This document shows positions 23,243-64,000 of a stretch of 64,000 nt of DNA, piece after piece (the first letter of the stretch is position 1; the number at the start of each line of letters is the position of its first letter). A program made the translations under genes and the position numbers. Origin of the DNA: Candidatus Moraniibacteriota bacterium (GTDB taxonomy: Bacteria; Patescibacteriota; Minisyncoccia; Moranbacterales; UBA1568); NCBI GenBank assembly GCA_963743885.1, contig CAVURJ010000002.1, positions 36,721-100,720 on the forward strand. Direction: 5' to 3'. A model generated the notes under the pieces. The model was not told the origin of the DNA. It saw only the letters and a list, made by a program, of their open reading frames with translations, and did no database searches.

Positions 23243-23476
<234 letters not shown>

Positions 23477-23477
23477 T

Positions 23478-24107: not shown

Positions 24108-24125
24108 TCAACTTTCTGAAGAATT

Positions 24126-47600: not shown

Positions 47601-50600
47601 GCAGCGTCGGATCGGAAGGCGCAGCGCTGACTCTCGCAATCGACCTCCTCGACTCGGCCGATGGCGCCGGTTCTACTAGCTCTAACTCCGGACTCGAGTT
47701 CCAGGGGGCATCGAGTAATGAACTGACACTTCTTCAAGGTTGTTCTGATAACAATGTGTTGGCGTGGCAAGATGCATCCAATTCTTGGATCTGCACGAGC
47801 GTCGGTGGCGTGGGTGCTGGTGATATCACTGCCGTAGGCGACGCGACTACCGGTGATGCATTCACAGCTGCTGGCACCTCTGGTACATCGCTCTATTTCT
47901 ATGATGCTGATGGCCGCGGCCAGTTGACGATTGCCAATCTGACAGCTGCGCGGACGTACACGCTCCCGAATGTCTCGGGTACTATCATCACGACCGGCGA
48001 TACCGGATCTGTCACGAGTACGATGCTTGCTGACTCAACCATCGCCGAAGCCGACCTCAGCGTCACCAACGCTGCGACTGCTGGCTACATCCTCTCCTAC
48101 GATGCAGGAGGTGGCTTCACCTGGATCGCCAACACTGGCGGCACCGGATCAAGCAAGTGGACCGACTCCGGCACCATCACGTACCTGACCAGTACGACCG
48201 ATGACGTCGCCTTGGGTGGTTCAACCAGCACGGCTTCCCGCTTCTTCTTCGATGTCACTACGGGGAACCAGATCATCTTCGAAGGTACCGGTGCTGATGA
48301 TGCCAACGAATCGACATTGGTCATCGCCAATCCAACAGCAGACAACACACTCACCATCCCGAACATCACTGGTACCTTCGTCACCACTGGCGATACTGCT
48401 TCCGTCACAGGTACGATGATCACCAACGATACGGTTGTCCTTACGACTGATACCGCTGGTAACTACGTCGCCTCTGTTTCAAACGGCTCCGGTATCACCG
48501 GTGGCAACGGGGGATCGGAAGGGGCGGCGCTCACGCTCGCGCTCGGTGCCCTGACGGCGGACTGGAACCAGACCGGAGCCTTCGACATCGCGCTCAACAA
48601 CGCCTCATCTGAGCTTAAGATCATGGAATCGACCGGCGCTACCTACTACGGCATCTTCGATGTTGGCGATCTCTCATCCGACCAGACCTACTCTTTCACG
48701 ACGGGCGGCACCGTCTGGACTTCAGGCAATGACGGTACCGGTTCGACCCTCGATGCCGATACCCTCGATGGGCATAGCGCTACCTACTTCCAGACCGTTC
48801 TCGCCAACCCGGTGACCGGTACGGGCACTAATGGTTACAATGCCTACTGGAACGGCACCGGCATGCTTGGAAGCGAGCAGTATGTCGCCACCTCGAGGGG
48901 AGGCACCGGTGTTAATGGCTCCGCTGCCGCGAACGGCGCCCTCCTGATCGGCAACAGCACCGGTTACAGTCTCGCGACCCTGACTCAAGGGTCTGGCGTA
49001 ACCATCACCAACGGATCGGGCACCATCACCATCGCGAGCACGCTCGGTACGTCTGTCGACCTCGCGAGCGAAGTGACGGGCACCCTCCCGGTTGCGAACG
49101 GCGGCACCGGCGCCACGACGCTCGCTGACCTCATCACGCTTTCGACGCACACCACCGGCAACTACGTCGCAAGTATCACCAACGGTTCCGGCATCACAGG
49201 TGGCAACGGGGGATCGGAAGGAGCCGCGCTCACTCTCGCTCTCTCGGCGCTTACGGCTGACTGGAACCAGACCGGTGCCTTCGATATCGCGCTCAACAAC
49301 GCCTCATCTGAGCTTAAGATCATGGAATCGACCGGCGCTACCTACTACGGCATCTTCGATGTCGGGGATCTCGCTTCTGACCAGACCTACTCTTTCACGA
49401 CGGGCGGCACCGTCTGGACTTCAGGCAATGACGGCTCAGGCTCGACCTTGGATGCGGATACCTTGGATGGTATCTCATCTGCTTCCTTCGTCCAGACGAG
49501 CGGACTGCTCTTCACTGCGGCCGGCACTTCGGGCAGTAGCCAATCCATCAACCAGGGCGATACACTCACCATCGCGGCTGGCACCGGCATCACAACGACG
49601 GGTGGAGTGACGGATACCATCACCATCGCGAGCACGCTCGGTACGGATATCTCTTCTTCTGAGATTGTTGATGGCACGATCGCGGAAGCTGATCTCAATG
49701 CGACAAATAGTCCGACAGCGGGATATGCACTTATCTATGACGTCGGTGGCGGTTTCACATGGGCGGATACGGGAGGTATGGGCAATTCCAAATGGACCGA
49801 TGCCGGGACGTTCACGTATCTCTCTGGGACTGCAGACAATATCGTAGTCGGTGCATCTACGGAGTCTGGAGCCGCTTTTGAGGTCGATACGGTGAACACT
49901 ACAATCAAGTTGAAAGAGGGCGGTACAACCCCGACGTATTTCGGCATCTTCGATGTTGGCGATCTCTCATCCGACCAGACCTACTCTTTCACGACGGGCG
50001 GCACCGTCTGGACTTCAGGCAATGACGGCTCAGGCTCGACCTTGGATGCGGATACCTTGGATGGTATCTCATCTGCTTCCTTCGTCCAGACGAGCGGACT
50101 GCTCTTCACTGCGGCCGGCACTTCGGGCAGTAGCCAATCCATCAACCAGGGCGATACACTCACCATCGCGGCCGGTACTGGCATTACGACGACGGGTGGA
50201 GCGACGGATACCATTACCATCGCCTCGACTTTGGGTACGTCTGTCGATCTCGCGAGCGAAGTGACAGGTACGCTTCCGGTTGCAAATGGCGGCACGGGCG
50301 CCACGACGCTTGCTGACCTCATCACCCTCAGCACCCACACCACCGGCAACTACGTCGCAAGTGTTTCGAATGGCTCCGGTATCACGGGTGGTAGCGCTGG
50401 ATCGGAAGGGGCGGCGCTCACGCTCGCGCTCGGTGCCCTGACGGCGGACTGGAACCAGACCGGAGCCTTCGACATCGCGCTCAACAACGCCTCATCTGAA
50501 CTCAAGATTCTTGGCTCAGCCGGCACCTACTACGGCATCTTTGATGTGGGAGCGCTTGGATCTGACCAGACCTACTCTTTCACGACGGGCGGCACCGTCT

Positions 50601-53600
50601 GGACTTCAGGCAATGACGGCTCAGGCTCGACCTTGGATGCGGATACACTTGATGGCCACGATACTGCCTACTTCCAGACCGCACTTACCAACCCGGTGAC
50701 CGGTACCGGTACCTCTGGCCAGGTGGCCTACTGGGACGGCACTTCGTCCATCGCCGGGGAGAACCAGCTTTCAGCGAGTAGGGGTGGTACCGGTATCAAC
50801 GGAGCCACCGCTGCCAATGGCACCCTCCTCATCGGCAACGGGACAGGCTACACGCTTGCCACTCTTACTGACGGCGCCGGTATCACGGTGACGGAAGGGG
50901 CGGGCACCATTACCATCGCCTCGACTTTGGGTACGTCTGTCGATCTCGCGAGCGAAGTGACAGGTACGCTTCCGGTTGCAAATGGCGGCACGGGCGCCAC
51001 GACGCTTGCTGACCTCATCACCCTCAGCACCCACACCACCGGCAACTACGTCGCAAGTGTTTCGAATGGCTCCGGTATCACGGGTGGTAGCGCTGGATCG
51101 GAAGGGGCGGCGCTCACGCTCGCGCTCGGTGCCCTGACGGCGGACTGGAACCAGACCGGAGCCTTCGACATCGCGCTCAACAACGCCTCATCTGAACTCA
51201 AGATTCTTGGCTCAGCCGGCACCTACTACGGCATCTTTGATGTGGGAGCGCTTGGATCTGACCAGACCTACTCTTTCACGACGGGCGGCACCGTCTGGAC
51301 TTCAGGCAATGACGGCTCAGGCTCGACCTTGGATGCGGATACCTTGGATGGTATCTCATCTGCTTCCTTCGTCCAGACGAGCGGACTGCTCTTCACTGCG
51401 GCCGGCACTTCGGGCAGTAGCCAATCCATCAACCAGGGCGATACACTCACCATCGCGGCCGGTACTGGCATTACGACGACGGGTGGAGCGACGGATACGG
51501 TGACCATCGCAGCCACCCTCGGTACCGACATCGCTTCCTCCGAGATCGTCGACTCAACCATCGCCGAAGCCGACCTCAGCGTCACCAACGCTGCGACTGC
51601 TGGCTACATCCTCTCCTACGATGCAGGAGGTGGCTTCACCTGGATCGCCAACACTGGCGGCACCGGATCAAGCAAGTGGACCGACTCCGGCACCATCACG
51701 TACCTGACCAGTACGACCGATGACGTCGCCTTGGGTGGTTCAACCAGCACGGCTTCCCGCTTCTTCTTCGATGTCACTACGGGGAACCAGATCATCTTCG
51801 AAGGTACCGGTGCTGATGATGCCAACGAATCGACATTGGTCATCGCCAATCCAACAGCAGACAACACACTCACCATCCCGAACATCACTGGTACCTTCGT
51901 CACCACTGGCGATACTGCTTCCGTCACAGGTACGATGATCACCAACGATACGGTTGTCCTTACGACTGATACCGCTGGTAACTACGTCGCCTCTGTTTCA
52001 AACGGCTCCGGTATCACCGGTGGCAACGGGGGATCGGAAGGGGCGGCGCTCACGCTCGCGCTCGGTGCCCTGACGGCGGACTGGAACCAGACCGGAGCCT
52101 TCGACATCGCGCTCAACAATACCTCGTCTGAACTCAAGATTCTTGGCTCAGCCGGCACCTACTACGGCATCTTTGATGTGGGAGCGCTTGGATCTGACCA
52201 GACCTACTCTTTCACGACGGGCGGCACCGTCTGGACTTCAGGTAATGATGGCTCCGGATCGACCCTTGATGCCGACCTCTTGGACGGTCTCTCATCCGCC
52301 TCCTTCGTCCAGACGAGCGGACTGCTCTTCACCGCGGCCGGTACTTCGGGTAGTAGCCAATCCATCAACCAGGGCGATACGCTCACCATCGCGGCCGGTA
52401 CTGGCGTTACGACGACGGGCGGAGCGACGGATACCATTACCATCGCCTCGACTTTGGGCACGTCTGTCGATCTCGCGAGCGAAGTGACGGGTACGCTCCC
52501 GGTTGCAAATGGCGGCACGGGCGCCACGACGCTTGCTGACCTCATCACCCTCAGCACCCACACCACCGGCAACTACGTCGCCTCTGTCTCAAACGGCTCC
52601 GGTATCACGGGTGGTAGCGCTGGATCGGAAGGGGCGGCGCTCACTCTCGCTCTCTCGGCGCTTACGGCTGACTGGAACCAGACCGGTGCCTTCGATATCG
52701 CGCTCAACAACGCCTCATCCGAACTGAAGATTCTCGAGAGTCTCGGCGATACCTACTACGGCATCTTCGATGTTGGCGATCTCTCGGCTGATCGGACACT
52801 GACGGTACCGAATGTTTCTGGTGTTATCGCGACTCTCGATGGAAGCCAGACCTTCACGTCCGCGACGTGGAACGGCACCGCCATCGGTGCCCAGTACGGC
52901 GGCACCGGCCTCAATACGAGCGCTTCGACCGGCGTCCCGACCATTTCCTCTGGCACCTGGAGCGTCGATACCAATTATCTCTCTCTCGCTCACGGCGGTA
53001 CCAATGCTTCTCTCACCGCCAGTAACGGAGGCATCGTTTATTCTACGGCTTCAGCCCTTTCCGTCCTGGCGGCTAATGCCAACTCCGGCCTTGCTCTCGT
53101 CTCAGGCGGTGCCGGTGCTCCGACCTGGTTCGCTCCGACTGTAGGGTCTGTCATCTTCGCTGGTGCGAACGGGGCATTGTCCTCGAGCAATACGCAGTTC
53201 TTCTGGGACAATACGAACAATTACCTCGGTATCGGTGATGCTACCCCGACGAACCAGTTCGATCTCCTCTCATCGTCAGCTGCGCATAATGGCATCATCA
53301 TTACCAATACCAATGCGGGTAACTACAATCCGATCATGCAGTTCGAGTTGACGGAAAATACACCGCTCTTCACGCTCGGCATCGATGATTCCGATTCTGA
53401 CAAGTTCAAGATTACGACCGGATCGGATATTTCCGGGACCAGCCAGTTCACTATAGATTCGTCCGGGACGACCTCGATCGCCAATCTCAATCTTGGCGCG
53501 ACCACGTTCGACGCGGATGCCGGCATCGTATCGTGGATTGACATGCCAGTGACGTCGTCGGCGACGGCTGGAACGGTGGAAAGTTACACTGCCCAACTTG

Positions 53601-56600
53601 ACGGTAACGCCCTCCTCACTGTTTATGGCGAATCCGATGGCGCCGGTTCTATTCAGAACTCCGGTGTCTCTATCGGTAACTCGACTCTCCAGTCCGGAGC
53701 CAAGTTTGCTGTGACCCAGGCTTTGACCACGACGACCGCCGGTACGATGTACGGTGTCTACAATTCCACGACGGATACCGGCATCGTCACCACGGGTACC
53801 GATACGACCTATGGCGTCTACAATACCGTCACGCGGACCGGTGCGACGGGCGGTACGATCAGCAATTATGGAGAGTACATCAGCCTGACCGGCGACACGG
53901 GTGGCACCAGTATCAACACTGGCCTCTATGTCACCGTCACCGGAGCGGATACCAATTATGCAGCCAACTTCATGGGTGGCAATGTTGGTATCGGCGACAG
54001 TACACCTGCTGCGCTTCTTACCGTCGGCAGTGGGGATCTCTTCCAGGTGAACAGCTCCGGTCAGGTCGCAGCCGGCACCTGGCAGGGTACAGTCATCGGT
54101 GCCCAGTACGGCGGCACCGGCGCAGCGACGCTCACGCCGAATGGCGTTCTCTACGGCAACGGCACCGGAGCTGTCCAGGTGACGGCAGCAGGTACTTCGG
54201 CGCAGCTTCTTCTTGCGAACGGTTCCGGTGTCCCGACGTTTGTCTCGATGTCGAGCGATGCCACCATTACGAATGCTGGCGTCCTTACGATTGCGGCTGA
54301 TGCGGTTGCTCTCGGCGGAGATACCACTGGCAACTACGTCGCCTCTGTCTCGAATGGCTCCGGTATCACCGGTGGTAGCGCTGGATCAGAAGGAGCAGCC
54401 CTCACCCTCGCCCTCGGTGCTCTCACGGCTGACTGGAACCAGACCGGAGCCTTCGACATCGCGCTCGGCAACGCCTCGTCTGAGCTCAAGATCATGGAAT
54501 CGACCGGAGCCACCTACTACGGCATCTTCGACGTGGGGGATCTGAGCGCTGATCGGACACTGACGGTGCCGAATGTTTCTGGTGTTATCGCGACCGTCGA
54601 TGGTGCTCAGACCTTTACCTCTGCGACGTGGAACGGTACAGTCATCGGTGCCCAGTACGGCGGCACCGGCCTCAATACGAGCGCTTCGACCGGCGTCCCG
54701 ACCATCTCCTCTGGCACCTGGAGCGTCTCCTCATCTCTTGGTGTCACTTTGGGAGGCACCGGCACGACGACCCAGTTCACTCCTGGCTCCATTGTTTTTG
54801 CTGGAGCAAGCGGCGTTTACAGTCAAGATAACGCCAACTTCTTCTGGGATGATACGAACAACCGGCTGGGTATTGGGACGGTGAGTCCTAGTGCGTCGCT
54901 TGATATCTATGGTACGTCCAATGCGCTCCGGCTCTCGTATGACAGCAGTAATTACGCGACATTGTCGACAGCTAGTACTGGAGATTTGTCAATCACGAGT
55001 TCGAATACGAGTGAGGCGGCAGTCGTGATCGGGACGGGCAGCGCCCAAGATGTTTCTGTTCAATTCGATGGAGCTTCTTACGATTATTTTTCTGGTCTTG
55101 ATCATACCACTGGCATGTACATGGTCGGTCCCGGATTTACAGTGCAGGGTGGGAACGCGGCGCTTACGATCGCTTCAACTGGGAATGTCGGCATTGGTAC
55201 AGGTGCTACAGCGCCAACTGCCCGCTTGGATGTATCGCTTGGTTCTACTTCAACAACAGGCGCTACGGAATATAGTGTTCGCAATACTCTCTCTGATACC
55301 GGCATCGTCACCACGGGTACCGATACGACCTATGGCGTCTACAATACCGTCACGCGGACCGGTGCGACGGGCGGTACGATCAGCAATTATGGAGAGTACA
55401 TCAGCCTGACCGGCGACACGGGTGGCACCAGTATCAACACTGGCCTCTATGTCACCGTCACCGGAGCGGATACCAATTATGCAGCCAACTTCATGGGTGG
55501 CAATGTTGGTATCGGCGACAGTACGCCTGCTGCGCTTCTTACCGTCGGCAGTGGGGATCTCTTCCAGGTGAACAGCTCCGGTCAGGTCGCAGCCGGCACC
55601 TGGCAGGGTACAGTCATCGGTGCCCAGTACGGCGGTACTGGTCTTAATACTTCCGCTTCGACTGGCGTTCCGACCATCTCTTCCGGCACGTGGTCTGTCA
55701 ATTCTGCGCTTGGCGTGACGACTGGCGGTACGGGCACGACGACCCAGTTTACTTTAGGTTCCATCGTTTTTGCTGGAGGATCCGGAGTCTATAATCAGGA
55801 TAATGCCAATTTCTTCTGGGATGATACGAACAATCGTCTCGGTATTGGCACGACTACTCCGAATGCTGGCCTCGATATCCTGAAGACAACCGCTCAGCTC
55901 CGTCTCTCATATGATGCATCGAACTACACGGCCTTTACGGTGGCGAGTGATGGGTCCATCATGATCGATCCGAGTGGCAGTGGCAACAACGTCCTCACAA
56001 TTGGTGATGGGGGAGCGACGGATCAGAATGTTCTTTTCGATGGCAATACGAATGACTACTATGTCGGTCAGGATGATACGGATGATAGTCTGAAGGTTGG
56101 TCTCGGGTCGGCAGTTGGCACCAATACCTATCTGACGGTTGCATCCGGTGGTAATGTGACAGTCAATACGGGGCAGCTTAACGCGTCGGCAGACGGTGTC
56201 GTGACCAAGGTAAATGCTGGAAATTGCAGCGATTCGACGTTTGCGACTGATACGGACGGCACGTTGTGCGTCGATTCGACAAGCGGTTCTGAGCGCCTCT
56301 ATTTCCGCGAGGGTGGTGCTTGGAACTATATCGCCAAGACAGGCGGTTTCCAGATTCCGAATTATGAGACAGCGCCACAGGATGATCTGACAGCCCAAGC
56401 CGAGGGCTCTCTGGAACAGAATACTGAGGATGTATCGCATTACCCTGAGTATTTGACTGATCGCATGCAGCCAGGCGAACTGCTTATCCCGTATGTCGAT
56501 GAATACCTTTCGGATGGCGCGGTCCATGGTTTGTATGCTCGTTTTACGGATGTGAAGGACGCGATGTTCGCTGATGAGAGGGCGGAGATTGCTGAGCTCA

Positions 56601-57292
56601 AGAGTTCGGCAGATTCATTCCTTGAATTGTACGGCCGCGTCGATGACATAGAGCGGGGATTGAGTGCGCTTATCGATCCGGAAGATGGGGAAATCGCGCT
56701 TGTGAAGAATAGTGTTGCTGATGCGCAGCGGAGCATCGTGGGATTGGATGGCCGGATGACGGTTCTGGAAAGCCAGGTCGCGGCGCTGTATGAGTTTTAC
56801 ACGAGCACCGAGCTCGGCAGTATTGTTACGAAGGATGTGACCGGTAGCGTCGATCTTTTGGATGGTAGCCTGACAGCGCAGCTTGTGCAGGCTGGTCTTG
56901 TCAAGGCGGATCTGATTGAGGGTGTCATTTCTGGCGGCATAGCTATTGAGAATGCTGATGAGACATCGCAGACCATTGGCACGGCGGTTATTTGCCCGAT
57001 TGTCACGGACACGGATAGCGATGGCAAGGATGACTGTTCAGGTATTGATATAGCTGATGCTGATGCGGTAGCGGATCAGGATGGTACGTATGTGGAGGTC
57101 AAGACCAAGGCGATGATTCCGATGGTCAACGGCTCTCGTGTCTTCACAACCTTCAAGGACAACCCGAATGCGTTCAGTTGGATCGAGAAGATCAAGGATG
57201 AAGACGGAGAATATGTCGGTTTCAAGATCCGTCTCGATAAGGCAGTGACCGCCAAGGTGAAGGTTGATTGGCTCTTGGTTGAACAGAAATAA
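41654..57292 (+). CDS. Giant secreted/cell-surface Thr/Gly/Ser-rich repeat protein (5212 aa), probable fibrous adhesin
   Basis: Single uninterrupted frame. N-terminal signal/anchor 'FAKLLFSAIAVGVICLGWYNIRPVFA'. Recurring modules 'LPVANGGTGATTLADLITLSTHTTGNYVASVSNGSGITGGSAGSEGAALTLAL' and 'TGATYYGIFDVGDLSSDQTYSFTTGGTVWTSGNDG'. Distinct C-terminal ~330-aa non-repetitive domain. Start may be GTG 41654 or ATG 41663. Confidence 0.85.
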   Translation: MKDMLSYVRNKNRKSFAKLLFSAIAVGVICLGWYNIRPVFAQFVDAQSIQRIGLSASLFNSENRIITNGTYEVRFAIYSKDRAESDVYPSNADAGSRLWEETQTVSVKNGVFRVFLGSANPLPESLTFNEGDYYVGMRIGTDSEMVPRKRLGSVPRAINSQYLGGKQVGTGAGDILTLGNKGKIDIKQLPTGTGSKQLVLGNDSRLQDSHQQNSDIGTDSTVFTIGDGASLADNFLLNVSSASNTPAIRFNGSTGAWQFSNDGTTFADISSGSSGTYLPLAGGTMTGAIVFAPAQSFADLISLGADTVGNYLASVSGGNGIVVSGSGSEGATPTVSLSLLGSADGTGAASSNSGLEFQGVGLSELTLLQGCSNGQGLSWNDTTNVWECTSFSAGLAGSGTAGYATYWSGASSLGSEQYLSSVRGGTGLDASAASNGSLLIGNGSGFTLNTLAGSGGVTVTNAVGIITLGLDALTSGTTATTYSNSGLETTADGIRLLGGCNDEQVLAWNATLERWVCSNKTGGTSDWTSTGSYTYLTDATDDLVIGGATTDAGFFFDVSAGTLAFEGTTADTYETAIGVIDPTADNTINFPNVSGTVITTGNLSSITATGTIASGTWNGTTIDVAHGGTGAATLSDLITLGTHTVGSYVSTIAAGNGISTTGASSGETIAHTLSLKLLILADSTGGTSSNSGLEFQGVGSDSLALLQGCSNGQVLSWNETTSVWECNSVSGMGGVTGSATSGQVAYWDSSSSIAGENQLAVSRGGTGIGSYTIGDLLYASGATTLSRLADVATGNVLISGGLGIAPSWGKVDLTSHVTGTLPVANGGTGATSLNDLITLSTHTTGNYVASVSNGSGITGGSAGSEGAALTLAIDLLDSADGTGSTSSNSGLEFQGAGSNELTLIQGCSNNQMLLWNDTTSTWYCGSVSGAGGIDGTGTAGYSAYWTDVDTLANEQYVSVARGGTGLSGSTAANGTLLIGTGTGYALATLTQGAGMTITNGSGTISLATTLGASVDLATEITGTLPIGNGGTGVALTDPNADRIMFWDDSAGVVAFLTPAANLSISGTTIDLAASVQLGADGTDGVFALYSEQGVTDYMTTFQPGTQTQNVTYTLPNDDGASGQVLVTNGTGTLSWSSVSGAGGVTGTGTTNYVAYWDSPSSIAAEQYLSLSRGGTGTSLTDPNADQIMFWDDSAGNVAFLAPSSNLSISGTGVDLASAVTIGSSLQLGQNGTDGTLTLFSEQGATDYTTVFQPGTQTQNVTYTLPNDDGASGQVLVTNGTGTLSWSSVSGAGGVTGTGTTNYVAYWDSPSSIAAEQYLSPTRGGTGVGTFTPNGVLYGNGTGAVQVTAAGTSAQLLLANGSGVPTFVSMSSDATITNAGVLTIAADAVALGGDTTGNYVASVSTSATTGLTGGSAGSESAALSLAFDYTSTLVGNPSLAAGSAVFGTTGLIFEGTTADAFEGLLTLIDPTTDNTWTLPNVSGTVITTGNLSSITATGTIASGTWNGTVIGAQYGGTGAATLTPNGVLYGNGTGAVQVTAAGTSAQLLLANGSGVPTFVSMSSDATITNAGVLTIAADAVALGGDTTGNYVASVSNGSGITGGSVGSEGAALTLAIDLLDSADGAGSTSSNSGLEFQGAGSNELGLLQGCANNEVLSWNDTTSVWQCASVSGVGGVTGSGVSGQVAYWDGTSSIAGENQLSVSRGGTGLGTYVIGDILYASGAAALSRLADVATGNVLISGGVGIAPSWGKVDLMSHVTGTLSVANGGTGATTLADLITLSTHTTGNYVASVSNGSGITGGSAGSEGAALTLALGALTADWNQTGAFDIALGNASSELKIMESTGATYYGIFDVGDLSADRTLTVPNVSGVIATVDGAQTFTSATWNGTVIGAQYGGTGAATLTPNGVLYGNGTGAVQVTAAGTSAQLLLANGSGVPTFVSMSSDATITNAGVLTIAADAVALGGDTTGNYVASVSNGSGITGGSVGSEGAALTLAIDLLDSADGAGSTSSNSGLEFQGASSNELTLLQGCSDNNVLAWQDASNSWICTSVGGVGAGDITAVGDATTGDAFTAAGTSGTSLYFYDADGRGQLTIANLTAARTYTLPNVSGTIITTGDTGSVTSTMLADSTIAEADLSVTNAATAGYILSYDAGGGFTWIANTGGTGSSKWTDSGTITYLTSTTDDVALGGSTSTASRFFFDVTTGNQIIFEGTGADDANESTLVIANPTADNTLTIPNITGTFVTTGDTASVTGTMITNDTVVLTTDTAGNYVASVSNGSGITGGNGGSEGAALTLALGALTADWNQTGAFDIALNNASSELKIMESTGATYYGIFDVGDLSSDQTYSFTTGGTVWTSGNDGTGSTLDADTLDGHSATYFQTVLANPVTGTGTNGYNAYWNGTGMLGSEQYVATSRGGTGVNGSAAANGALLIGNSTGYSLATLTQGSGVTITNGSGTITIASTLGTSVDLASEVTGTLPVANGGTGATTLADLITLSTHTTGNYVASITNGSGITGGNGGSEGAALTLALSALTADWNQTGAFDIALNNASSELKIMESTGATYYGIFDVGDLASDQTYSFTTGGTVWTSGNDGSGSTLDADTLDGISSASFVQTSGLLFTAAGTSGSSQSINQGDTLTIAAGTGITTTGGVTDTITIASTLGTDISSSEIVDGTIAEADLNATNSPTAGYALIYDVGGGFTWADTGGMGNSKWTDAGTFTYLSGTADNIVVGASTESGAAFEVDTVNTTIKLKEGGTTPTYFGIFDVGDLSSDQTYSFTTGGTVWTSGNDGSGSTLDADTLDGISSASFVQTSGLLFTAAGTSGSSQSINQGDTLTIAAGTGITTTGGATDTITIASTLGTSVDLASEVTGTLPVANGGTGATTLADLITLSTHTTGNYVASVSNGSGITGGSAGSEGAALTLALGALTADWNQTGAFDIALNNASSELKILGSAGTYYGIFDVGALGSDQTYSFTTGGTVWTSGNDGSGSTLDADTLDGHDTAYFQTALTNPVTGTGTSGQVAYWDGTSSIAGENQLSASRGGTGINGATAANGTLLIGNGTGYTLATLTDGAGITVTEGAGTITIASTLGTSVDLASEVTGTLPVANGGTGATTLADLITLSTHTTGNYVASVSNGSGITGGSAGSEGAALTLALGALTADWNQTGAFDIALNNASSELKILGSAGTYYGIFDVGALGSDQTYSFTTGGTVWTSGNDGSGSTLDADTLDGISSASFVQTSGLLFTAAGTSGSSQSINQGDTLTIAAGTGITTTGGATDTVTIAATLGTDIASSEIVDSTIAEADLSVTNAATAGYILSYDAGGGFTWIANTGGTGSSKWTDSGTITYLTSTTDDVALGGSTSTASRFFFDVTTGNQIIFEGTGADDANESTLVIANPTADNTLTIPNITGTFVTTGDTASVTGTMITNDTVVLTTDTAGNYVASVSNGSGITGGNGGSEGAALTLALGALTADWNQTGAFDIALNNTSSELKILGSAGTYYGIFDVGALGSDQTYSFTTGGTVWTSGNDGSGSTLDADLLDGLSSASFVQTSGLLFTAAGTSGSSQSINQGDTLTIAAGTGVTTTGGATDTITIASTLGTSVDLASEVTGTLPVANGGTGATTLADLITLSTHTTGNYVASVSNGSGITGGSAGSEGAALTLALSALTADWNQTGAFDIALNNASSELKILESLGDTYYGIFDVGDLSADRTLTVPNVSGVIATLDGSQTFTSATWNGTAIGAQYGGTGLNTSASTGVPTISSGTWSVDTNYLSLAHGGTNASLTASNGGIVYSTASALSVLAANANSGLALVSGGAGAPTWFAPTVGSVIFAGANGALSSSNTQFFWDNTNNYLGIGDATPTNQFDLLSSSAAHNGIIITNTNAGNYNPIMQFELTENTPLFTLGIDDSDSDKFKITTGSDISGTSQFTIDSSGTTSIANLNLGATTFDADAGIVSWIDMPVTSSATAGTVESYTAQLDGNALLTVYGESDGAGSIQNSGVSIGNSTLQSGAKFAVTQALTTTTAGTMYGVYNSTTDTGIVTTGTDTTYGVYNTVTRTGATGGTISNYGEYISLTGDTGGTSINTGLYVTVTGADTNYAANFMGGNVGIGDSTPAALLTVGSGDLFQVNSSGQVAAGTWQGTVIGAQYGGTGAATLTPNGVLYGNGTGAVQVTAAGTSAQLLLANGSGVPTFVSMSSDATITNAGVLTIAADAVALGGDTTGNYVASVSNGSGITGGSAGSEGAALTLALGALTADWNQTGAFDIALGNASSELKIMESTGATYYGIFDVGDLSADRTLTVPNVSGVIATVDGAQTFTSATWNGTVIGAQYGGTGLNTSASTGVPTISSGTWSVSSSLGVTLGGTGTTTQFTPGSIVFAGASGVYSQDNANFFWDDTNNRLGIGTVSPSASLDIYGTSNALRLSYDSSNYATLSTASTGDLSITSSNTSEAAVVIGTGSAQDVSVQFDGASYDYFSGLDHTTGMYMVGPGFTVQGGNAALTIASTGNVGIGTGATAPTARLDVSLGSTSTTGATEYSVRNTLSDTGIVTTGTDTTYGVYNTVTRTGATGGTISNYGEYISLTGDTGGTSINTGLYVTVTGADTNYAANFMGGNVGIGDSTPAALLTVGSGDLFQVNSSGQVAAGTWQGTVIGAQYGGTGLNTSASTGVPTISSGTWSVNSALGVTTGGTGTTTQFTLGSIVFAGGSGVYNQDNANFFWDDTNNRLGIGTTTPNAGLDILKTTAQLRLSYDASNYTAFTVASDGSIMIDPSGSGNNVLTIGDGGATDQNVLFDGNTNDYYVGQDDTDDSLKVGLGSAVGTNTYLTVASGGNVTVNTGQLNASADGVVTKVNAGNCSDSTFATDTDGTLCVDSTSGSERLYFREGGAWNYIAKTGGFQIPNYETAPQDDLTAQAEGSLEQNTEDVSHYPEYLTDRMQPGELLIPYVDEYLSDGAVHGLYARFTDVKDAMFADERAEIAELKSSADSFLELYGRVDDIERGLSALIDPEDGEIALVKNSVADAQRSIVGLDGRMTVLESQVAALYEFYTSTELGSIVTKDVTGSVDLLDGSLTAQLVQAGLVKADLIEGVISGGIAIENADETSQTIGTAVICPIVTDTDSDGKDDCSGIDIADADAVADQDGTYVEVKTKAMIPMVNGSRVFTTFKDNPNAFSWIEKIKDEDGEYVGFKIRLDKAVTAKVKVDWLLVEQK
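45647..54351 (+). repeat. Nested near-identical segmental duplications inside the giant gene
   Basis: ~215-bp block identical at 45647-45862, 46220-46434, 47363-47577 and 54137-54351 (copies 2 and 3 are 1143 bp apart). ~600-bp block identical at ~48020-48600 and ~51536-52120. Further copies at 49930-50250, 50540-50660 and 51210-51500. Confidence 0.85.
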
Positions 57293-57323
57293 GGTAAAGA
57301 GTTAAGAAGGAAAAGAAGACAGG

Positions 57324-60300
57324 ATGACAAAGGGATATATGAAACCTGAAAGGCGATTAGGAACAATTCTGTGGAGGGCGGCACCTGTTCTGGTTGTTTT
57401 TGCGATTATCGGAGCGGCCGGTTTCGGTTTGGTAAGGCTATGGCAGCATGAGATGGCAGTGATTATTCCTGATGAACTGGCATCTGGGACGGCTCGCACG
57501 GTCACGCTGGTAGCTGGAAAGGATTATCACGTATCGGGTCAATCAGTTGTCGAGAACGTACCGGACAACGAGATGCTTGCTGCTTTTCCGATGCTTCAGG
57601 ACGGATTTTCCGATCTTTCATTTTCGATGGATGCTGATGCGAATATCGCAAAATCAGCTATTGAAAAGACGGTTTCCCTGTCTGAGAGTGCTGGTCGGGT
57701 GGCGAGTGAATATTCACTTGATGGAATGCGTATTACGACAGAGTATCGTGAGAATGATTCTATTTCAAAACAGTCTGAAAATCAGAAGATGCTTGGCGGA
57801 GGAGAGGGGAGTATATCTATCAAGCAGACGATAACGTTGAAGAACGATCAGGACCAGGAAAAGAAGGTGGCTTTTTCCGTACGGACTAAGATAGCGGCAG
57901 ATAAGGTCGTATGGGATGGCCGCGAATACCGGCTTACCGGTCAGCATGAGACATTTCGTGCTTACGAGAAGACGGCTTCCGTGCCGGAATTCGCCAAGGA
58001 TATGGGACAGAAGGATCTCAAGGGTATCGATGCGTTCAAGGACTATACGCACACCTATACGGTCGGTTCCTCGCTCTCGTTCGCCGACAAGGATGGGAAT
58101 ATGGCCGATTATGATTGGAGTGATGCGCTCGCCTTTCATCCGGAGGTGGTCGCTTATCGCGAGGGTGATGCGTCGTATATCGAGCTCCGGCTTTCGGGGG
58201 TCACGGTTCCGGCGTATGGCGAGACGGTCATCGATCCGGACTATGACCTGGCATCGGGAGCCGGCTACACGGCACGCTACGATGGGGCGTACATAAACAA
58301 TAGCATCAGTTCGATTGCCGTCAGCGATGTGAATGGCGACGGTTTCTCTGATCTCGTCATCAGTTCGCCGTATGCGAGTAATAATAGTCGCACTGGCTCT
58401 GGCTCTGTCTATATCGTATTCCGCAAAGCCGATTCTCCCAGTGGAGTACAGAGTCTTGATGTCGCTGCACACTACAACATCCGCTATGATGGGGCAGCGG
58501 CAGGCGATACTTTCGGGTCAGCAGTGGTCGTCGGCGATGTGAATGGCGATAGCCATTCTGATCTTATCGTCGGTGCATCGACCGCGAGTAATAATAGCCG
58601 CTCCTATTCCGGTTCCGTCTACGTCTTCTTCTCTACCCTGATTGACGATGTCGGCGCCACGACGGGTAACAATCTCGACCTCGCTACCGGGACCAACTAC
58701 AACATCCGCTATGATGGGGCAGCGGCAGGCGATACTTTCGGGTCAGCAGTGGTCGTCGGCGATGTGAATGGCGATAGCCATCCTGATCTTATCGCTGGTG
58801 TGCCGTATGCGAGCAATAATAGTCGCTCCGCTTCCGGTTCCGCCTACGTCTTCTTCTCTACTCTGATCGATGATGTCGGCGCCACGACGGGTAACAATCT
58901 CGACCTCGCTACCGGGACCAACTACAACATCCGCTATGACGGCGCGGAGGCAGGTGACTTTATGGGGCAGTCTGTCACAACAGGCGACGTGAATGGCGAT
59001 AGTTATCCCGACCTCGTGTTGGGCACACCGGACGCTGGCAACAATGCCCGTTCTGGGTCTGGCTCCGTCTACGTCTTCTTCTCTACTCTGATCGATGATG
59101 TCGGCGCCACGACGGGTAACAATCTCGACCTCGCTACCGGGACCAACTACAACATCCGCTATGACGGCGCGGAGGCAGGTGACTTTATGGGGCAGTCTGT
59201 CACAACAGGCGACGTGAATGGCGATAGCCATTCTGATCTTATCGTCGGTGCATCGACCGCGAGTAATAATAGTCGCTCCGCTTCCGGTTCCGCCTACGTC
59301 TTCTTCTCTACTCTGATCGATGATGTCGGCGCCACGACGGGTAACAATCTCGACCTCGCTACCGGGACCAATTACAACATCCGCTATGATGGTGCGGTCG
59401 CAGGTGACTATATAGGACAGACTGCCACAACAGGCGACGTGAATGGCGATAGCCATCCTGATCTTATCGTCGGTGCATCGACCGCGAGCAATAATAGTCG
59501 CTCCGCTTCCGGTTCCGCCTACGTCTTCTTCTCTACTCTGATCGATGATGTCGGCGCCACGACGGGTAACAATCTCGACCTCGCTACCGGGACCAATTAC
59601 AACATCCGCTATGATGGTGCGGTCGCAGGTGACTATATAGGACAGACTGCCACAACAGGCGACGTGAATGGCGATAGCCATCCTGATCTTATCGTCGGTG
59701 CATCGACCGCGAGTAATAATAGTCGCTCCGCTTCCGGTTCCGCCTACGTCTTCTTCTCTACTCTGATCGATGATGTCGGCGCCACGACGGGTAACAATCT
59801 CGACCTCGCTACCGGGACCAATTACAACATCCGCTATGATGGTGCGGTCGCAGGTGACTATATGGGGCAGTCTGTCACAACAGGCGACGTGAACAGCGAC
59901 GGTTATTCGGATATGATCGCTCAGACACAAGCGTCTTCGGGGGATGATCTTGTGTACATCTTATTCTCTACTTTGATTGACGACGTGGGCGCCACCACCG
60001 GCAACAATTTTGATTTGGCTACGAGCACTAATTACAGTGCGCGCTTTGATGGTGCGCCGTCGCTGGGCACATATGTCGATGGCCGATTAGCTATCGGCGA
60101 CGTGAACGGTGACGGTATAGATGATCTCGTGATTGGAGGAGTGAGTATCTATGTTATTTTCGGCGGACAGCATCCTACGGGAAACCGTTTGCTTACGGTG
60201 GCCGGGAATTATAATATCCGTTATAACAGCGTTAGCACTCATATTGCCATCGGCGACGTGAACGGCGACGGTTTCTCTGATCTTGTTATCGGTTCATCAT

Positions 60301-61802
60301 CCGCGAGCAATAATAGTCGCTCCTATTCCGGTTCTGTCTACGTCTTCTTCTCTACTCTGATCGATGATGTCGGCGCCACAACCGGTAACAACAAAGACCT
60401 CGCTACTGGTACCAACTACAACATCCGCTATGATGGTGCGGTCGCAGAGGATACTCTCGGGTCAGCAGTAGTCATCGGCGACGTGAATGGCGATAGTCAT
60501 CCTGATCTTATCGTCGGTGCGCCGTATGCGAGCAATAATAGTCGCTTTCATTCCGGCTCCGTCTACGTCTTCTTCTCTACTCTGATCGATGATGTCGGCG
60601 CTACGACCGGTAATGACAAGGATCTGGCTACCGGGACCAACTACAACATCCGCTATGACGGGGTAGTTACGAGCGGATATTATGGCGAAGCGCTGTTCAC
60701 TGGCGACGTGAACGGCGACGGTTATGCTGATCTTGTACTCGGTAATGGGAACACGAGTTACAATAGCCGCGCCTATTCCGGTTCCGCCTACGTCTTCTTC
60801 TCTACCCTGATTGACGATGTGGGCGCCACCACTGGTAACAATCTCGACCTCGCTACTGGTACCAACTACAACATCCGCTATGATGGTGCGACTGCCAGTG
60901 CTCGGTTAGTTGGCGCCGAGGGAGCTATTGTTATTGGTGATGTAAATGGCGACAGCCACCCCGACCTTATCGTCGGTGCGCCGTATACGAGTTATAATAG
61001 TCGCTCCGCTTCCGGTTCCGCCTACGTCTTCTTCTCTACCCTGATTGACGATGTGGGCGCCACGACCGGTAACAATCTCGACCTCGCGATAGGGACCAAC
61101 TACAACATCCGCTATGATGGCGCGGCCGCCGAGGACAGGCTGACATACGGGGAAAATAGCAAAGTATTGACGGCTGGCGATGTGAATGGCGACGGTTATC
61201 CTGATCTTGTGTTCGGATCGTCATATATTGATAACAATAGCCGTTCTTACTCTGGCTCTGTCTATGTCCTCTTCTCTACCCTGATTGACGATGTGGGCGC
61301 CACGACCGGTAACAACAAAGACCTGGCTACCGGGACCAACTACAACATCCGCTATGATGGCGCGGCCGCCGGTGATTGGCTGGCTGGCTATTCGGGAGTG
61401 ATTATCGGGGATGCTGATGGCGACGGCCACCCCGACCTCGTCTTCGGTACGTCGCTGGCCGACAATAATTCTCGGACGAATTCTGGCGCGCTCTATATGC
61501 TTTCTTCTACTCTGATTGATGATGTCGGCGCTACGACCGGTAATGACAAGGATCTGGCCACCGGTACCAACTACAGCATCCGCTACGATGGGGCTCTTGC
61601 TAATGACGGACTTGCCTCTGTTCCGGAAACCATTGCCATCGGCAATCTGGGCGGCAAAGCGAATCTCGCGTTTTGTGTAGGGACAGGACCATATAATAGC
61701 GGCTCCGTCTATATTATCGAAAAAGGTGGCCCATCAGCTCATCAGCCGTTCGGTATCCAGGGCCAGGCCAAGTTTAATGGCGCCATCAAGCTTGGGCACT
61801 AG
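57324..61802 (+). CDS. Membrane-anchored FG-GAP (integrin-alpha-like beta-propeller) repeat protein, 1492 aa
   Basis: N-terminal TM 'VLVVFAIIGAAGFGLV'. At least 14 tandem ~73-aa repeats of 'GDVNGDG(F/Y/H)xDL(V/I)xG...NNSRS.SGS.YVFFSTLIDDVGATTGNNLDLATGTNYNIRYDG', matching the FG-GAP consensus (Ca-binding DxNxDGxxD loop). Confidence 0.8.
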   Translation: MTKGYMKPERRLGTILWRAAPVLVVFAIIGAAGFGLVRLWQHEMAVIIPDELASGTARTVTLVAGKDYHVSGQSVVENVPDNEMLAAFPMLQDGFSDLSFSMDADANIAKSAIEKTVSLSESAGRVASEYSLDGMRITTEYRENDSISKQSENQKMLGGGEGSISIKQTITLKNDQDQEKKVAFSVRTKIAADKVVWDGREYRLTGQHETFRAYEKTASVPEFAKDMGQKDLKGIDAFKDYTHTYTVGSSLSFADKDGNMADYDWSDALAFHPEVVAYREGDASYIELRLSGVTVPAYGETVIDPDYDLASGAGYTARYDGAYINNSISSIAVSDVNGDGFSDLVISSPYASNNSRTGSGSVYIVFRKADSPSGVQSLDVAAHYNIRYDGAAAGDTFGSAVVVGDVNGDSHSDLIVGASTASNNSRSYSGSVYVFFSTLIDDVGATTGNNLDLATGTNYNIRYDGAAAGDTFGSAVVVGDVNGDSHPDLIAGVPYASNNSRSASGSAYVFFSTLIDDVGATTGNNLDLATGTNYNIRYDGAEAGDFMGQSVTTGDVNGDSYPDLVLGTPDAGNNARSGSGSVYVFFSTLIDDVGATTGNNLDLATGTNYNIRYDGAEAGDFMGQSVTTGDVNGDSHSDLIVGASTASNNSRSASGSAYVFFSTLIDDVGATTGNNLDLATGTNYNIRYDGAVAGDYIGQTATTGDVNGDSHPDLIVGASTASNNSRSASGSAYVFFSTLIDDVGATTGNNLDLATGTNYNIRYDGAVAGDYIGQTATTGDVNGDSHPDLIVGASTASNNSRSASGSAYVFFSTLIDDVGATTGNNLDLATGTNYNIRYDGAVAGDYMGQSVTTGDVNSDGYSDMIAQTQASSGDDLVYILFSTLIDDVGATTGNNFDLATSTNYSARFDGAPSLGTYVDGRLAIGDVNGDGIDDLVIGGVSIYVIFGGQHPTGNRLLTVAGNYNIRYNSVSTHIAIGDVNGDGFSDLVIGSSSASNNSRSYSGSVYVFFSTLIDDVGATTGNNKDLATGTNYNIRYDGAVAEDTLGSAVVIGDVNGDSHPDLIVGAPYASNNSRFHSGSVYVFFSTLIDDVGATTGNDKDLATGTNYNIRYDGVVTSGYYGEALFTGDVNGDGYADLVLGNGNTSYNSRAYSGSAYVFFSTLIDDVGATTGNNLDLATGTNYNIRYDGATASARLVGAEGAIVIGDVNGDSHPDLIVGAPYTSYNSRSASGSAYVFFSTLIDDVGATTGNNLDLAIGTNYNIRYDGAAAEDRLTYGENSKVLTAGDVNGDGYPDLVFGSSYIDNNSRSYSGSVYVLFSTLIDDVGATTGNNKDLATGTNYNIRYDGAAAGDWLAGYSGVIIGDADGDGHPDLVFGTSLADNNSRTNSGALYMLSSTLIDDVGATTGNDKDLATGTNYSIRYDGALANDGLASVPETIAIGNLGGKANLAFCVGTGPYNSGSVYIIEKGGPSAHQPFGIQGQAKFNGAIKLGH

Positions 61803-61890
61803 TAAACCCACAAACAGCGGTCCGACTGCTGTAAAGAAGTGATAAAGCCCAAATTTCAGAGCCCAAAAAGCCAAATAGACCACAGAACCT

Positions 61891-62250
61891 ATGACTCAAA
61901 GCCCAAATAAATACCGACTACTAGAAACCCGAACGACGGAATTCGCAAAGCGTATAATCCGTCTGTGCAAGGCTCTTCCGAAAAATATGATAAATTATCG
62001 GTTGATAGATCAGATTGTCCGATCGGCTGGTTCGGTTGGAGCAAATTATCGGGAAGCCAATGAAACGGTGGGGAGAAAAGATTTCGTGTATCGTATCCGT
62101 ATAGCAAGGAAAGAATGCAAAGAGACAGAACATTGGTTGGATCTTATCCGAGAGGCGAATGCGGAGTTTGATGCGAGAATGGATGAATTATTTCGAGAAT
62201 GCCTCGAGATAAGGAAAATCCTTTCCGCCATCATTAAAAAATCGAAGTAG
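61891..62250 (+). CDS. Four-helix-bundle protein (IVS-protein family), second copy
   Basis: 'IIRLCKALPKN...RLIDQIVRSAGSVGANYREANETVGRKDFVYRIRIARKECKETEHWLDLI' matches the same family pattern as 39318-39704. Confidence 0.7.
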   Translation: MTQSPNKYRLLETRTTEFAKRIIRLCKALPKNMINYRLIDQIVRSAGSVGANYREANETVGRKDFVYRIRIARKECKETEHWLDLIREANAEFDARMDELFRECLEIRKILSAIIKKSK

Positions 62251-62402
62251 AAAGAGGTTGTTTCCCGTTTGAATTTTCGTGTTTTGTGCCCTATTTGGTT
62301 TTCTGTGTTCTGATTCTTGTGCTCTGTCTGGCTTTTTGTGCATTGGTTCCTGTGTTCTCTTAAGTCATTAGAAAATTAGATATTCGGTATTCATATACAT
62401 AT

Positions 62403-64000
62403 ATGTCTGACTACGGTTTCACCAAACACAGAGCCTTCCAATGGATGTTCATCATCATAATTCTCATGGGGGGCGTTTTCGCGTACTATCATTTCCGTTC
62501 TTATGCAGCGGTGACGCTCAATAAAATATCTGGCGGGACGGTCAAGCTGGATACGTCGCAGAACAGCCAATTGACGAACGGCCTAGTGGGCGAGTGGTCG
62601 TTCAATGGCGCGGACATGTCCGGTACCACGGCCTATGACCGGAGCGGCCAGGGGAACAACGGCACGCTCACCAACGGCCCGACGCCGGCTATTGGTCAGG
62701 TTGGCCAGGCGCTCTCGTTTGATGGAACAGATGATTATGTGAATGTTGGGAAAAGTGTTGGCGCGAGTACGATGACTGTGACTGCCTGGGTGAAGCCGGA
62801 TTTCTCATCGCAGTATAATTCCGGGCGTCACTGCATCATTGCCGCAGCTGCAGCCACGAATTATTTTAGTGTGTGCTACGCCGGGGACTATAGTAGCATA
62901 CAAGGATGGATCACGCGCTTTCGCGGTGGCGGCGTGACTGACAATGAATCGTATGGGATCCGAAAAACGACGAATAATGGTTTTCAAGGAAATTGGATAT
63001 TTGTCGCTGTTACGCTCGATAAGGATGTCGGTGCGAAGATATATGAGGATGGCGTGCTTCAAGGTTTCAGTCCGGGCACGACGGGTATCATGGGGAGCAA
63101 TACCGCTGTCGTTATCGGCAATAACGGCAGCGGAGCGGGTTTTTGGAAAGGCGCTATGGATGAGGTGCGCGTGTATAATCGTGTACTGCCAGCAAGCGAG
63201 GTCTGGGATCTTTATCAATTGGGAGTGGCGGATAAGGCTAGCTCGGCATCGAGTCAGGGCGATCCGCTCGAAAAAGGCCTTGCGGGTTATTGGAATCTTG
63301 ATGATGGGAGCGGGACGACTGCTACGGATGCTTCGGTGAATGCGAACAATGGCACGCTTACCAATGGCCCGACATGGAGTACGGGACAGATCGGCGGCGG
63401 TGCTGTCTTTGATGGGACGGATGATTATGTATCGATAAGCAATCCTCCGGTGGTAGGATGGCCGCTGACAATGAGCGTATGGTTCAAGACGACGGACGCG
63501 ACCGCGAGTTACCGATCTATGGCGGCTTTGCTTGGTGTTAATTCGTTTGCGATTTTACAGTTCGATCTCTCCAGTTGTGGCGGCCCCGGGAAGGTAAAGT
63601 ATATTATCCGGGATAATGGCGGTAGCGTTTTAGCGCAGAAATGCTCGTCAACCGATTTGAACGATGGTATGTGGCATCATGCAGTAGGCGTGAGCTCATC
63701 AGCGAGCGATCATAGGCTGTATATAGATGGGGCATTGCAAGGAAGCGACGCTACTGCTTTAGGGGCAACGACGTTTACTTCTATGAGGATAGGAACCAAG
63801 GTATCGGGTGATCAGCACTTCCCCGGGTCTCTTGATGATGTCCGCGTCTATAGTCGCGCCCTCTCCGATGGCGATGTCGCCAAGCTCTACAGGACGACAG
63901 CGCCGGATGATCCAGATACGGGACTTAAGGGCTATTGGAGTTTCAATGGTACTGATGTCTCCGGTACGACGGCCTACGACAGAAGTGGGAGCGGGAGTAA
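62403..64000 (+). CDS. Membrane-anchored LamG/concanavalin-A-like (Laminin_G_3-type) repeat protein, 5' part (runs off the window)
   Basis: Hand translation from ATG 62403 shows no stop through base 64000, so it is absent from the closed-ORF track. N-terminal TM 'WMFIIIILMGGVFAYY'. Repeated 'L.G.W.F.G......D.SG.GNNGTLTNGPT...G.GQ.G.AL.FDGTDDYV' and 'MDEVRVYNRVLPASEVWDLY' / 'LDDVRVYSRALSDGDVAKLY' LamG_3 signatures. At least 3 domains. Confidence 0.7.
   Translation, partial: MSDYGFTKHRAFQWMFIIIILMGGVFAYYHFRSYAAVTLNKISGGTVKLDTSQNSQLTNGLVGEWSFNGADMSGTTAYDRSGQGNNGTLTNGPTPAIGQVGQALSFDGTDDYVNVGKSVGASTMTVTAWVKPDFSSQYNSGRHCIIAAAAATNYFSVCYAGDYSSIQGWITRFRGGGVTDNESYGIRKTTNNGFQGNWIFVAVTLDKDVGAKIYEDGVLQGFSPGTTGIMGSNTAVVIGNNGSGAGFWKGAMDEVRVYNRVLPASEVWDLYQLGVADKASSASSQGDPLEKGLAGYWNLDDGSGTTATDASVNANNGTLTNGPTWSTGQIGGGAVFDGTDDYVSISNPPVVGWPLTMSVWFKTTDATASYRSMAALLGVNSFAILQFDLSSCGGPGKVKYIIRDNGGSVLAQKCSSTDLNDGMWHHAVGVSSSASDHRLYIDGALQGSDATALGATTFTSMRIGTKVSGDQHFPGSLDDVRVYSRALSDGDVAKLYRTTAPDDPDTGLKGYWSFNGTDVSGTTAYDRSGSGS

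Follow-up and report, generated by a model that had tools for sequence, protein, structure and literature searches.

A 16-blade FG-GAP protein built of two eight-blade modules in a Candidatus Moraniibacteriota bacterium, and its probable homogenization by intragenic gene conversion

Introduction

Tandem blades that look like recent copies of one another at the DNA level may have multiplied lately, or they may be older repeats that are kept alike. The question of which process is at work is raised by the gene of an FG-GAP protein in a Candidatus Moraniibacteriota bacterium (assembly GCA_963743885.1, contig CAVURJ010000002.1). The whole stretch of DNA analyzed, hereafter the window, is 64,000 nucleotides long. 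An initial annotation, made from the sequence alone, described at 58480-61500 an array of at least 14 near-identical units of 219 bp. It proposed that fourteen blades would make two seven-bladed beta-propellers, and that their similarity in DNA points to recent expansion or concerted evolution and calls for caution about the assembly, as for the giant gene. Here, we describe an array of 16 blades laid out as two modules of eight, in which comparison with relatives points to concerted evolution under a fixed blade number.

The protein is already present in public databases as a hypothetical protein, and neither FG-GAP proteins nor highly repetitive propellers are new. Indeed, VCBS/FG-GAP propellers of the latter kind, in which a local amplification is nested in a global one, have already been described (PMC9218822). 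What the present analysis adds is the 2 x 8 architecture, conversion under a fixed blade number, an invariant insert between strands C and D of the blades (CD insert), a rare N-terminal domain (N-domain) and the conserved pairing with a giant gene.

Sixteen Blades in Two Modules of Eight

The assignment of the protein to the FG-GAP family stands. On the 1492-residue product of the complete open reading frame (ORF), Pfam FG-GAP (PF01839) covers 15 stretches and reaches 363.5 bits (cutoff 22.1; E = 1.5e-111). The public gene call, P0001, begins at the second ATG (57339) and gives 1487 residues. The repeats do form a long tandem array within a single plus-strand ORF, but the region is wider than first described, spanning approximately 58251-61799. 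Within it, Tandem Repeats Finder returns two arrays of period 225, at 58471-59893 (6.3 copies, 89% matches) and at 60248-61369 (4.9 copies, 73%). Cutting the protein at its GDVNGD loop yields 15 clear units of 52-80 residues, with a mode of 75 residues, that is 225 bp rather than 219 bp, and a degenerate C-terminal unit (IGNLGGKANL...). There are therefore 16 blades, 15 with a D-x-[DN]-x-D-x-x-x-D loop and a degenerate C-terminal one, and the protein terminates about 50 residues past blade 16. The motif quoted in the initial annotation as recurring at least 14 times occurs 13 times; a linker, STLIDDVGATTGN, is found in 13 blades, the exceptions being blades 1, 9, and 16.

The positions of the atypical blades define the layout. 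In blades 2-8 and 10-15, strand C is followed by an insert of 22 residues (STLIDDVGATTGNN-x-L-x-TGTN); blades 1 and 9, hereafter starter blades, are without it and end with "...VIFGG/IVFRK...". The arrangement of a starter plus seven blades, then a starter plus six blades and a terminal one, is the same in P0002-P0006, which are 43-55% identical to the window protein and each have exactly 16 Ca-loop anchors. P0007, P0008, and P0011 likewise have two modules and 16 blades, of which the first and the ninth are starters. Nine other relatives that possess the insert (P0010, P0013, P0014, P0015, P0016, P0017, P0019, P0020, and P0026) have one module of exactly eight blades. Counted at the sequence level, the modules of the window protein and of 17 relatives thus have eight blades, not the seven of an integrin-alpha-type propeller.

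Modules 1 and 2 of the window protein align end to end with 65% identity, and the halves of the orthologues from loci L001 and L002 can be aligned likewise. Because double-module relatives have 16 blades and single-module relatives exactly eight, the evolutionary unit is an eight-blade module, present twice, and not a set of seven blades. The comparison of blade counts among orthologues, proposed as a check in the initial annotation, therefore gives 16 or eight where 14 had been expected. The eight-blade module is presumably also the structural unit, and the module architecture suggests that each module most likely closes into an eight-bladed beta-propeller. In the window protein, 17 strand-D-like segments (Y-x-[IA]-R-[YF]-D-G) are found for 16 A-B-C sets, and the extra segment would suit a velcro-type closure of the ring.

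Concerted Evolution of the Blades

Long stretches of nucleotide identity are indeed present, in or near the intervals first reported. The longest exact repeats measure 224 bp (59265/59490), 181 bp, 159 bp (58844/59069), and 149 bp, and they are spaced at multiples of 225 bp. However, the description of the units as near-identical holds only for units 5-7, which share 98-99% of their DNA sequence across 675 bp. Within units 2-7, DNA identity ranges from 76 to 99%, and all other pairs fall between 44 and 85%. Synonymous divergence (pS) between units is 0.15-0.58 for most pairs, and values of 0.02-0.04 are reached only among units 5, 6, and 7.

Comparison of blades within and between proteins indicates how this similarity arose. 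Among the 12 linker-type blades of one protein, amino acid identity is 74% in the window protein, 86% in P0002, 93% in P0003, and 84.5% in P0005. Between proteins, blade identity is 47-65%, reaching 81% for the close pair P0002/P0003, and sharing a position in the array does not make the blades of two proteins more alike (for example, 63.2% at the same position vs. 64.1% at different ones). In L002, the blades are 94.7% identical at the DNA level and third codon positions are equally similar (94.5%); for the modal units of the window, the corresponding values are 83 and 73%. Moreover, a sliding map of nearest relatives reveals a patchwork. Unit 2 is a mosaic whose 5' end exactly matches unit 5, its middle part units 3 and 4, and its 3' end unit 1; unit 3 perfectly matches unit 4 over its 3' half.

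Because the number of blades is conserved, homogenization is specific to each lineage and the tracts form a patchwork, the similarity of the blades is best read as the outcome of concerted evolution by intragenic gene conversion. Of the two origins initially considered, concerted evolution is thus retained, in view of the higher identity within than between proteins, of the lack of a position effect and of the mosaic units. Recent expansion is not supported, since orthologues that have diverged all keep the same number of blades. The locus offers a clear case in which two frequently confused processes can be told apart: the copies look recent at the DNA level, yet their count has stayed at eight per module across relatives that are only 43-55% identical. 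Gene conversion under structural constraint, rather than ongoing amplification, would account for this.

Among the closest precedents are the bacterial VCBS/FG-GAP propellers of Pereira and Lupas (2021, 2022), for which a role in carbohydrate or protein recognition is presumed (PMC8023676, PMC9218822). These also have blades that are more than 60% identical and a near-identical stretch inside a repetitive array. With mean blade identities of 74% for the protein and 83% for the DNA, the window protein lies above the median identity of 60% that delimits highly repetitive propellers (PMC9218822). However, those studies stress variable blade numbers resulting from ongoing amplification, whereas in the present family the number is fixed at eight per module and similarity would be maintained by conversion.

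The concern about the assembly is legitimate for the family. P0005 (2305 residues, L004, 10001-16918) and P0012 (1925 residues, L007, 1490-7267) represent one gene in the same neighborhood, recovered from two metagenome samples. They share an identical prefix of 379 residues and an identical suffix of 1066 residues, and differ by exactly five blades of 76 residues (8+8 vs. 6+5). This difference is probably due to an assembly collapse of near-identical repeats or to an in-frame indel. The pair illustrates that blade counts can be mis-assembled and that counts from short-read metagenome-assembled genomes need to be checked against the canonical layout of the family. In the window, a miscount is unlikely because the gene shows the canonical 16 blades in the canonical layout. 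The composition of blades 5-7 may nevertheless be chimeric.

Blade Anatomy, Calcium Loop and Selection

The anatomy of the blade was deduced from the topology of integrins and PVL (PMC8023676). By this analogy, strand A would carry the FG motif (..FGSAVVVGD) and loop AB would be the Ca2+ loop D-V-N-G-D-[SG]-x-x-D of 15 of the 16 blades. Strand B would contain the GAP motif (DLIVGAS/GAP), followed by loop BC (TASNNSRSASG) and strand C (SAYVFF). The family-specific insert would then occupy loop CD, before strand D (YNIRYDG) and loop DA' (AxAGDxxG). Calcium blades are recognized by a D-x-[DN]-x-D-G motif located in loop AB (Rigden et al., 2011). In the window protein, D-x-[DN]-x-D-[GS]-x-x-D is found in 15 blades and blade 16 is devoid of the motif. 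Since 15 of the 16 blades carry such an integrin-type loop, the blade fold is probably stabilized by Ca2+.

A column map shows that variation between blades is concentrated in loop BC and in loop DA' together with strand A. Little or no variation affects the Ca loop, strand D and the CD insert, even among proteins that are 43-55% identical, and the CD insert, missing only from blades 1, 9, and 16, is the most conserved element. The ratio of nonsynonymous to synonymous divergence (pN/pS) between units is about 0.3 overall, 0.11 in the CD insert, 0.20 in the Ca loop, and 0.44-0.47 in the variable loops. These last values are above those of other regions but below 1, and the test for diversifying selection on the variable loops therefore gave no evidence of it. 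Purifying selection acts throughout the blade repeats.

The N-Domain and the C-Terminal Motif

An AlphaFold2 (AF2) model of residues 1-337 has a mean predicted local distance difference test score (pLDDT) of 75, mostly above 85 in the core (residues 55-310). A long helix (residues 12-43), which may insert into the membrane, precedes an all-beta domain. A Pfam and NCBIfam search of this N-domain gave no match. In relatives, it directly precedes the eight-blade module and is 29-45% identical, with invariant positions that include KQ, HTY, Y-D-W-x-D, and VIDP. The domain is rare: a HMMER search of 1.84 billion proteins retrieved 51 cluster representatives at E <= 1e-3, of which 26 at E <= 1e-10.

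The best structural matches of the N-domain model are galactose-mutarotase-like supersandwiches. Foldseek returned an NDH subunit (9grx_2, E = 1e-5), the P1 domain of YidC (3bs6, E = 5e-5), aldose epimerases (aldose 1-epimerase being a supersandwich representative), the N-domains of GH65 and GH94 enzymes and a viral GH65 protein. E-values range from 1e-5 to 1e-3 with probabilities near 1, and identities are 6-13%. Because the TM-scores of these matches are only 0.27-0.35, the placement of the N-domain nearest to a galactose-mutarotase-like beta-supersandwich is tentative. No sequence family matches the domain.

At the other end of the protein, a motif G-x-h-x-h-x-G-x-x-x-h-x (61761-61799 in the window) is common to the window protein, P0002, P0003, P0004, and P0005, where it reads GQAKFNGAIKLGH, GRFNFQGAASFR, GTLNLQGPASLH, GDFNLEGSVNFE, and GTYRFQGSVRFE. 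It is kept even where about 800 residues of beta-helix-like sequence follow blade 16. The motif could correspond to the last D strand, folding back onto the propeller, or serve as a signal for sorting or docking.

Pairing With a Giant Gene

The FG-GAP gene is preceded by a giant gene, whose 5212-residue product has no Pfam or NCBIfam match. This protein has an N-terminal hydrophobic segment and a C-terminal tail of about 60 residues (...VDWLLVEQK) shared with the giants of L001, L002, and L003, the consensus of which is ...VDW[WL]L[IV]EQK. Homology covers the giants of L001 and L002 and the upstream ORF of L003. A homologous giant gene lies immediately upstream of the FG-GAP gene in at least four loci (L001, L002, L003, and L005); its product has 5583 residues in L001 and 5035 in L002, and homology is weaker in L005. 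A promoter and terminator scan of the 31-bp gap between the two genes gave nothing above shuffled expectation. The two genes are probably an operon and their products functional partners.

Possible Function and Rival Explanations

We favor, with some reserve, a reading in which the window protein is an anchored surface protein whose two eight-blade calcium modules are kept alike by conversion, and which serves as an adhesin in partnership with the giant protein. The N-terminal membrane anchor would hold the rare beta-sandwich domain and the two calcium-blade modules at the cell surface, where each module would close into a Ca2+-stabilized propeller. In integrin alpha propellers, the ligand is contacted by the upper-face loops between strands D and A' and between strands B and C. 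Loop AB houses the Ca motif, and in PVL and tachylectin loop DA' helps to form the sugar pocket (PMC8023676). By analogy with these proteins, the variable BC and DA' loops would form the face binding a ligand or a sugar. The protein would thereby mediate Ca2+-dependent adhesion or the binding of a glycan or protein ligand at the cell surface. It would be co-expressed and act with the giant fibrous protein, for example in the attachment to a host cell, and selection would hold the blade number at 16 while intragenic conversion homogenizes the blades.

Such a role would matter because bacteria of the candidate phyla radiation (CPR), or Patescibacteria, live attached to other cells by mechanisms that are largely unknown. 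With its conserved pair of genes for a giant fiber and a double propeller, which occupies about 20 kb in a genome of very small size, the locus offers a tangible candidate for an attachment machinery. Giant membrane proteins of CPR bacteria with integrin, PKD, and fibronectin domains have been proposed to act in host attachment, a proposal that is inferential too (PMC8080830). The giants of the Vampirococcus lugosii type described there are likewise very large predicted membrane or surface proteins, encoded by a reduced CPR genome and proposed to act in host recognition and attachment. The present locus differs by its conserved pair of a giant fiber-like protein and a 16-blade FG-GAP protein. 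One may go further and imagine that the pair is a dedicated two-component surface apparatus of CPR episymbionts, with the membrane-anchored double propeller, its invariant CD insert and its rare N-domain, as the base or co-receptor of the fiber when a host cell is attached, and with conversion reshuffling the variable BC and DA' ligand loops; we consider this extension rather unlikely.

Several observations weigh against the favored reading. For residues 300-1492, AF2 gave a model (1193 residues, 12-row alignment) with a mean pLDDT of 34.5 and a predicted TM-score of 0.33, too low for a fold search, and the FG-GAP propellers of integrins have seven blades (PMC8023676). At position 6 of the Ca loop, a strict Gly is found in seven of the 15 blades and Ser in the other eight. 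To these points are added the low TM-scores of the N-domain and the outcome of a profile scan of reference-genome contigs with this domain, which gave a single match, on a 5.7-kb contig (L003) binned as Bdellovibrionales. Finally, L004 and L006 lack the pairing with a giant gene.

Among the alternatives, the origin of about 14 near-identical blades by recent tandem expansion, forming two seven-bladed propellers, would agree with the blade number of integrins, with the 98-99% identity of units 5-7 and with the long motif common to 13 units. We regard it as highly improbable in the face of 16 blades, the first and ninth of which are starters, of the same count in five relatives at 43-55% identity and of eight blades in single-module relatives. 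The pS values of 0.15-0.58 for most unit pairs also speak against it, and the fixed count and mosaic pattern indicate conversion. An assembly artefact, in which blades of the 98-99% identical stretch have been collapsed, expanded or made chimeric, would be suggested by the exact repeats of up to 224 bp, by the near-identity of units 5-7 over 675 bp and by the five blades that separate P0005 from P0012. However, the canonical number and layout recur in five independent assemblies, the ORF is intact and in frame, and a collapse would leave fewer than 16 blades, which makes this explanation improbable.

The arrangement and the activity of the modules can also be viewed otherwise. The 16 blades might be organized in unequal rings, in an open or intertwined double propeller or by assembly between subunits, since no confident model is available and 17 strand-D-like segments for 16 A-B-C sets would allow strand swapping or velcro closure between modules. 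The eight-blade module, however, stands alone in many relatives and the two modules are full-length duplicates of each other; we therefore give such arrangements a small chance only. Catalytic propellers, for instance of a PL11-type rhamnogalacturonan lyase or of another carbohydrate-active enzyme, would account for the resemblance of the N-domain to supersandwich domains of glycoside hydrolases and phosphorylases and for the beta-helix-like C-terminal extensions of the long relatives P0004 and P0005. They would also have an eight-bladed model in the calcium-blade propeller of PL11 YesW, related to FG-GAP in the passages of PMC3123361 and PMC9218822 that cite it. Nevertheless, the window protein matches neither RGL11 nor any other enzyme family, Protein Data Bank (PDB) sequence and profile searches gave no PL11 match, and an asymmetric active site would not usually be built of idealized, near-identical blades. 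An enzymatic rather than adhesive function is thus doubtful, at about the level of the assembly artefact.

Comparison With Known Propellers

The closest solved sequences, retrieved by PDB sequence and profile searches, are the calcium blades of integrins alpha-V, alpha-IIb, alpha-5, and alpha-6 (E about 1e-4 to 1e-6); these matches are weak and cannot decide between seven and eight blades. The integrin alpha propeller has the same FG...GAP blade signature and, in loop AB, the same Ca2+ motif D-x-[DN]-x-D-[GS]-x-x-D. It is made of seven blades, three or four of which bind Ca2+, followed by thigh and calf domains and a C-terminal transmembrane helix, and it pairs with a beta subunit. In contrast, the window protein has two eight-blade modules, 15 Ca motifs for 16 blades, an N-terminal anchor and the 22-residue CD insert. 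An integrin alpha subunit was accordingly rejected as a candidate, as there are no thigh or calf Pfam domains and the hydrophobic helix is N-terminal.

For the eight-bladed ring, the passages of PMC3123361 and PMC9218822 citing PL11 YesW offer a precedent, namely a solved eight-bladed calcium-blade propeller in the FG-GAP/VCBS supercluster. YesW is, however, a secreted single-propeller enzyme, and YesW/YesX have no detectable sequence match to the window protein. A PL11 rhamnogalacturonan lyase was set aside, with no RGL11 match in Pfam and neither YesW nor YesX in the PDB searches. The same holds for a Tc toxin TcB-type propeller: TcdB_toxin_midN scores 17.6 bits, under its cutoff of 24.8, and there are no RHS/YD domains.

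Other Features of the Locus

The locus is a surface-protein cluster, the features of which are collected in Table 1.

Table 1. Features of the FG-GAP gene and of its surroundings, in window coordinates.
Feature	Position	Strand	Evidence or remark
FG-GAP protein, complete ORF, 1492 residues	57324..61802	+	Pfam FG-GAP E = 1.5e-111; sense-frame pN/pS between units 0.33
N-terminal hydrophobic helix, residues 12-43, probable membrane/signal anchor	57357..57452	+	AF2 helix; hydrophobic N-termini in relatives too
All-beta N-domain, residues ~55-310, tentatively supersandwich-like, unannotated	57486..58253	+	AF2; family conservation
Eight-blade module 1, residues 310-900: starter blade 1 and blades 2-8	58251..60023	+
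Eight-blade module 2, residues 901-1492: starter blade 9, blades 10-15, degenerate blade 16, C-terminal tail	60024..61799	+	65% identical to module 1
Starter blade 1, 70 residues, without STLIDDVGATTGNN insert	58323..58532	+
Starter blade 9, 52 residues, without insert; BC and DA' loops shortened	60096..60251	+
Blades 2-7, most homogenized stretch, 76-99% DNA identity, mosaic donor pattern	58533..59882	+
Blades 5-7, the only near-identical units (98-99% in DNA), with the 224-bp exact repeat; highest mis-assembly risk	59208..59882	+
Degenerate blade 16 (IGNLGGKANL in place of Ca loop) and C-terminal tail ending GQAKFNGAIKLGH	61638..61799	+
395-residue antisense ORF, artefact of a stop-free antisense frame multiplied by repeats	58743..59930	-	pN/pS; orthologous arrays
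Giant gene, 5212 residues, ends 31 bp upstream of FG-GAP gene	41654..57292	+	Homologous giant genes at other loci
23S_rRNA_IVP four-helix-bundle gene, recurrent small neighbor	61891..62250	+
ORF of at least 545 residues running off the window end: hydrophobic N-terminus and two Laminin_G_3 (ConA-like lectin) domains	62364..64000	+

Minus-strand ORFs of 395 residues had been dismissed as artefacts of the repeats in the initial annotation, and this view is borne out. Between units, pN/pS is 1.71 in the 395-residue antisense frame vs. 0.33 in the sense frame, and the orthologous arrays of L001 and L002 hold equivalent stop-free antisense ORFs of 410 and 491 residues.

The 23S_rRNA_IVP gene shifts position from one locus to another: in the window it follows the FG-GAP gene, whereas in L002 (9412-9792) it separates the two large genes. 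A small ORF between the large genes of L003 (4020-4403) is putatively a 23S_rRNA_IVP gene too. Further downstream in the window, the seemingly ORF-poor stretch corresponds to the Laminin_G_3 ORF, open at the window end. No RNA family of Rfam was found in 57000-64000 at the gathering score or in 62200-64000 at E <= 1.

In L002, downstream of the orthologue (14565-24503), further FG-GAP genes are found (2050 residues, 546 residues, and a third truncated by the end of the locus), and two Y1_Tnp transposase genes of the IS200/IS605 type are interspersed among them. At L006, P0007 is a 16-blade member with the same N-domain, beside RND efflux genes with an outer-membrane factor (OEP), a context of Gram-negative type. 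The family is therefore not confined to CPR bacteria.

Finally, the window is chromosomal and contains leuS, folD, uppP/bacA, parA, parB, and one tRNA-Leu. Its ParA protein falls in a 90%-identity cluster, the named members of which come from Candidatus Moranbacteria/Moraniibacteriota/Patescibacteria metagenome-assembled genomes, so that the source is probably a CPR bacterium. Between parB and the giant gene, an ORF of 235 residues (40886-41593, plus strand) has no Pfam or NCBIfam match. In the leucyl-tRNA synthetase ORF (31239-34145, plus strand, 968 residues), a NUDIX match (residues 412-505, E = 5.6e-8) separates the editing domain from the second half of the catalytic domain.

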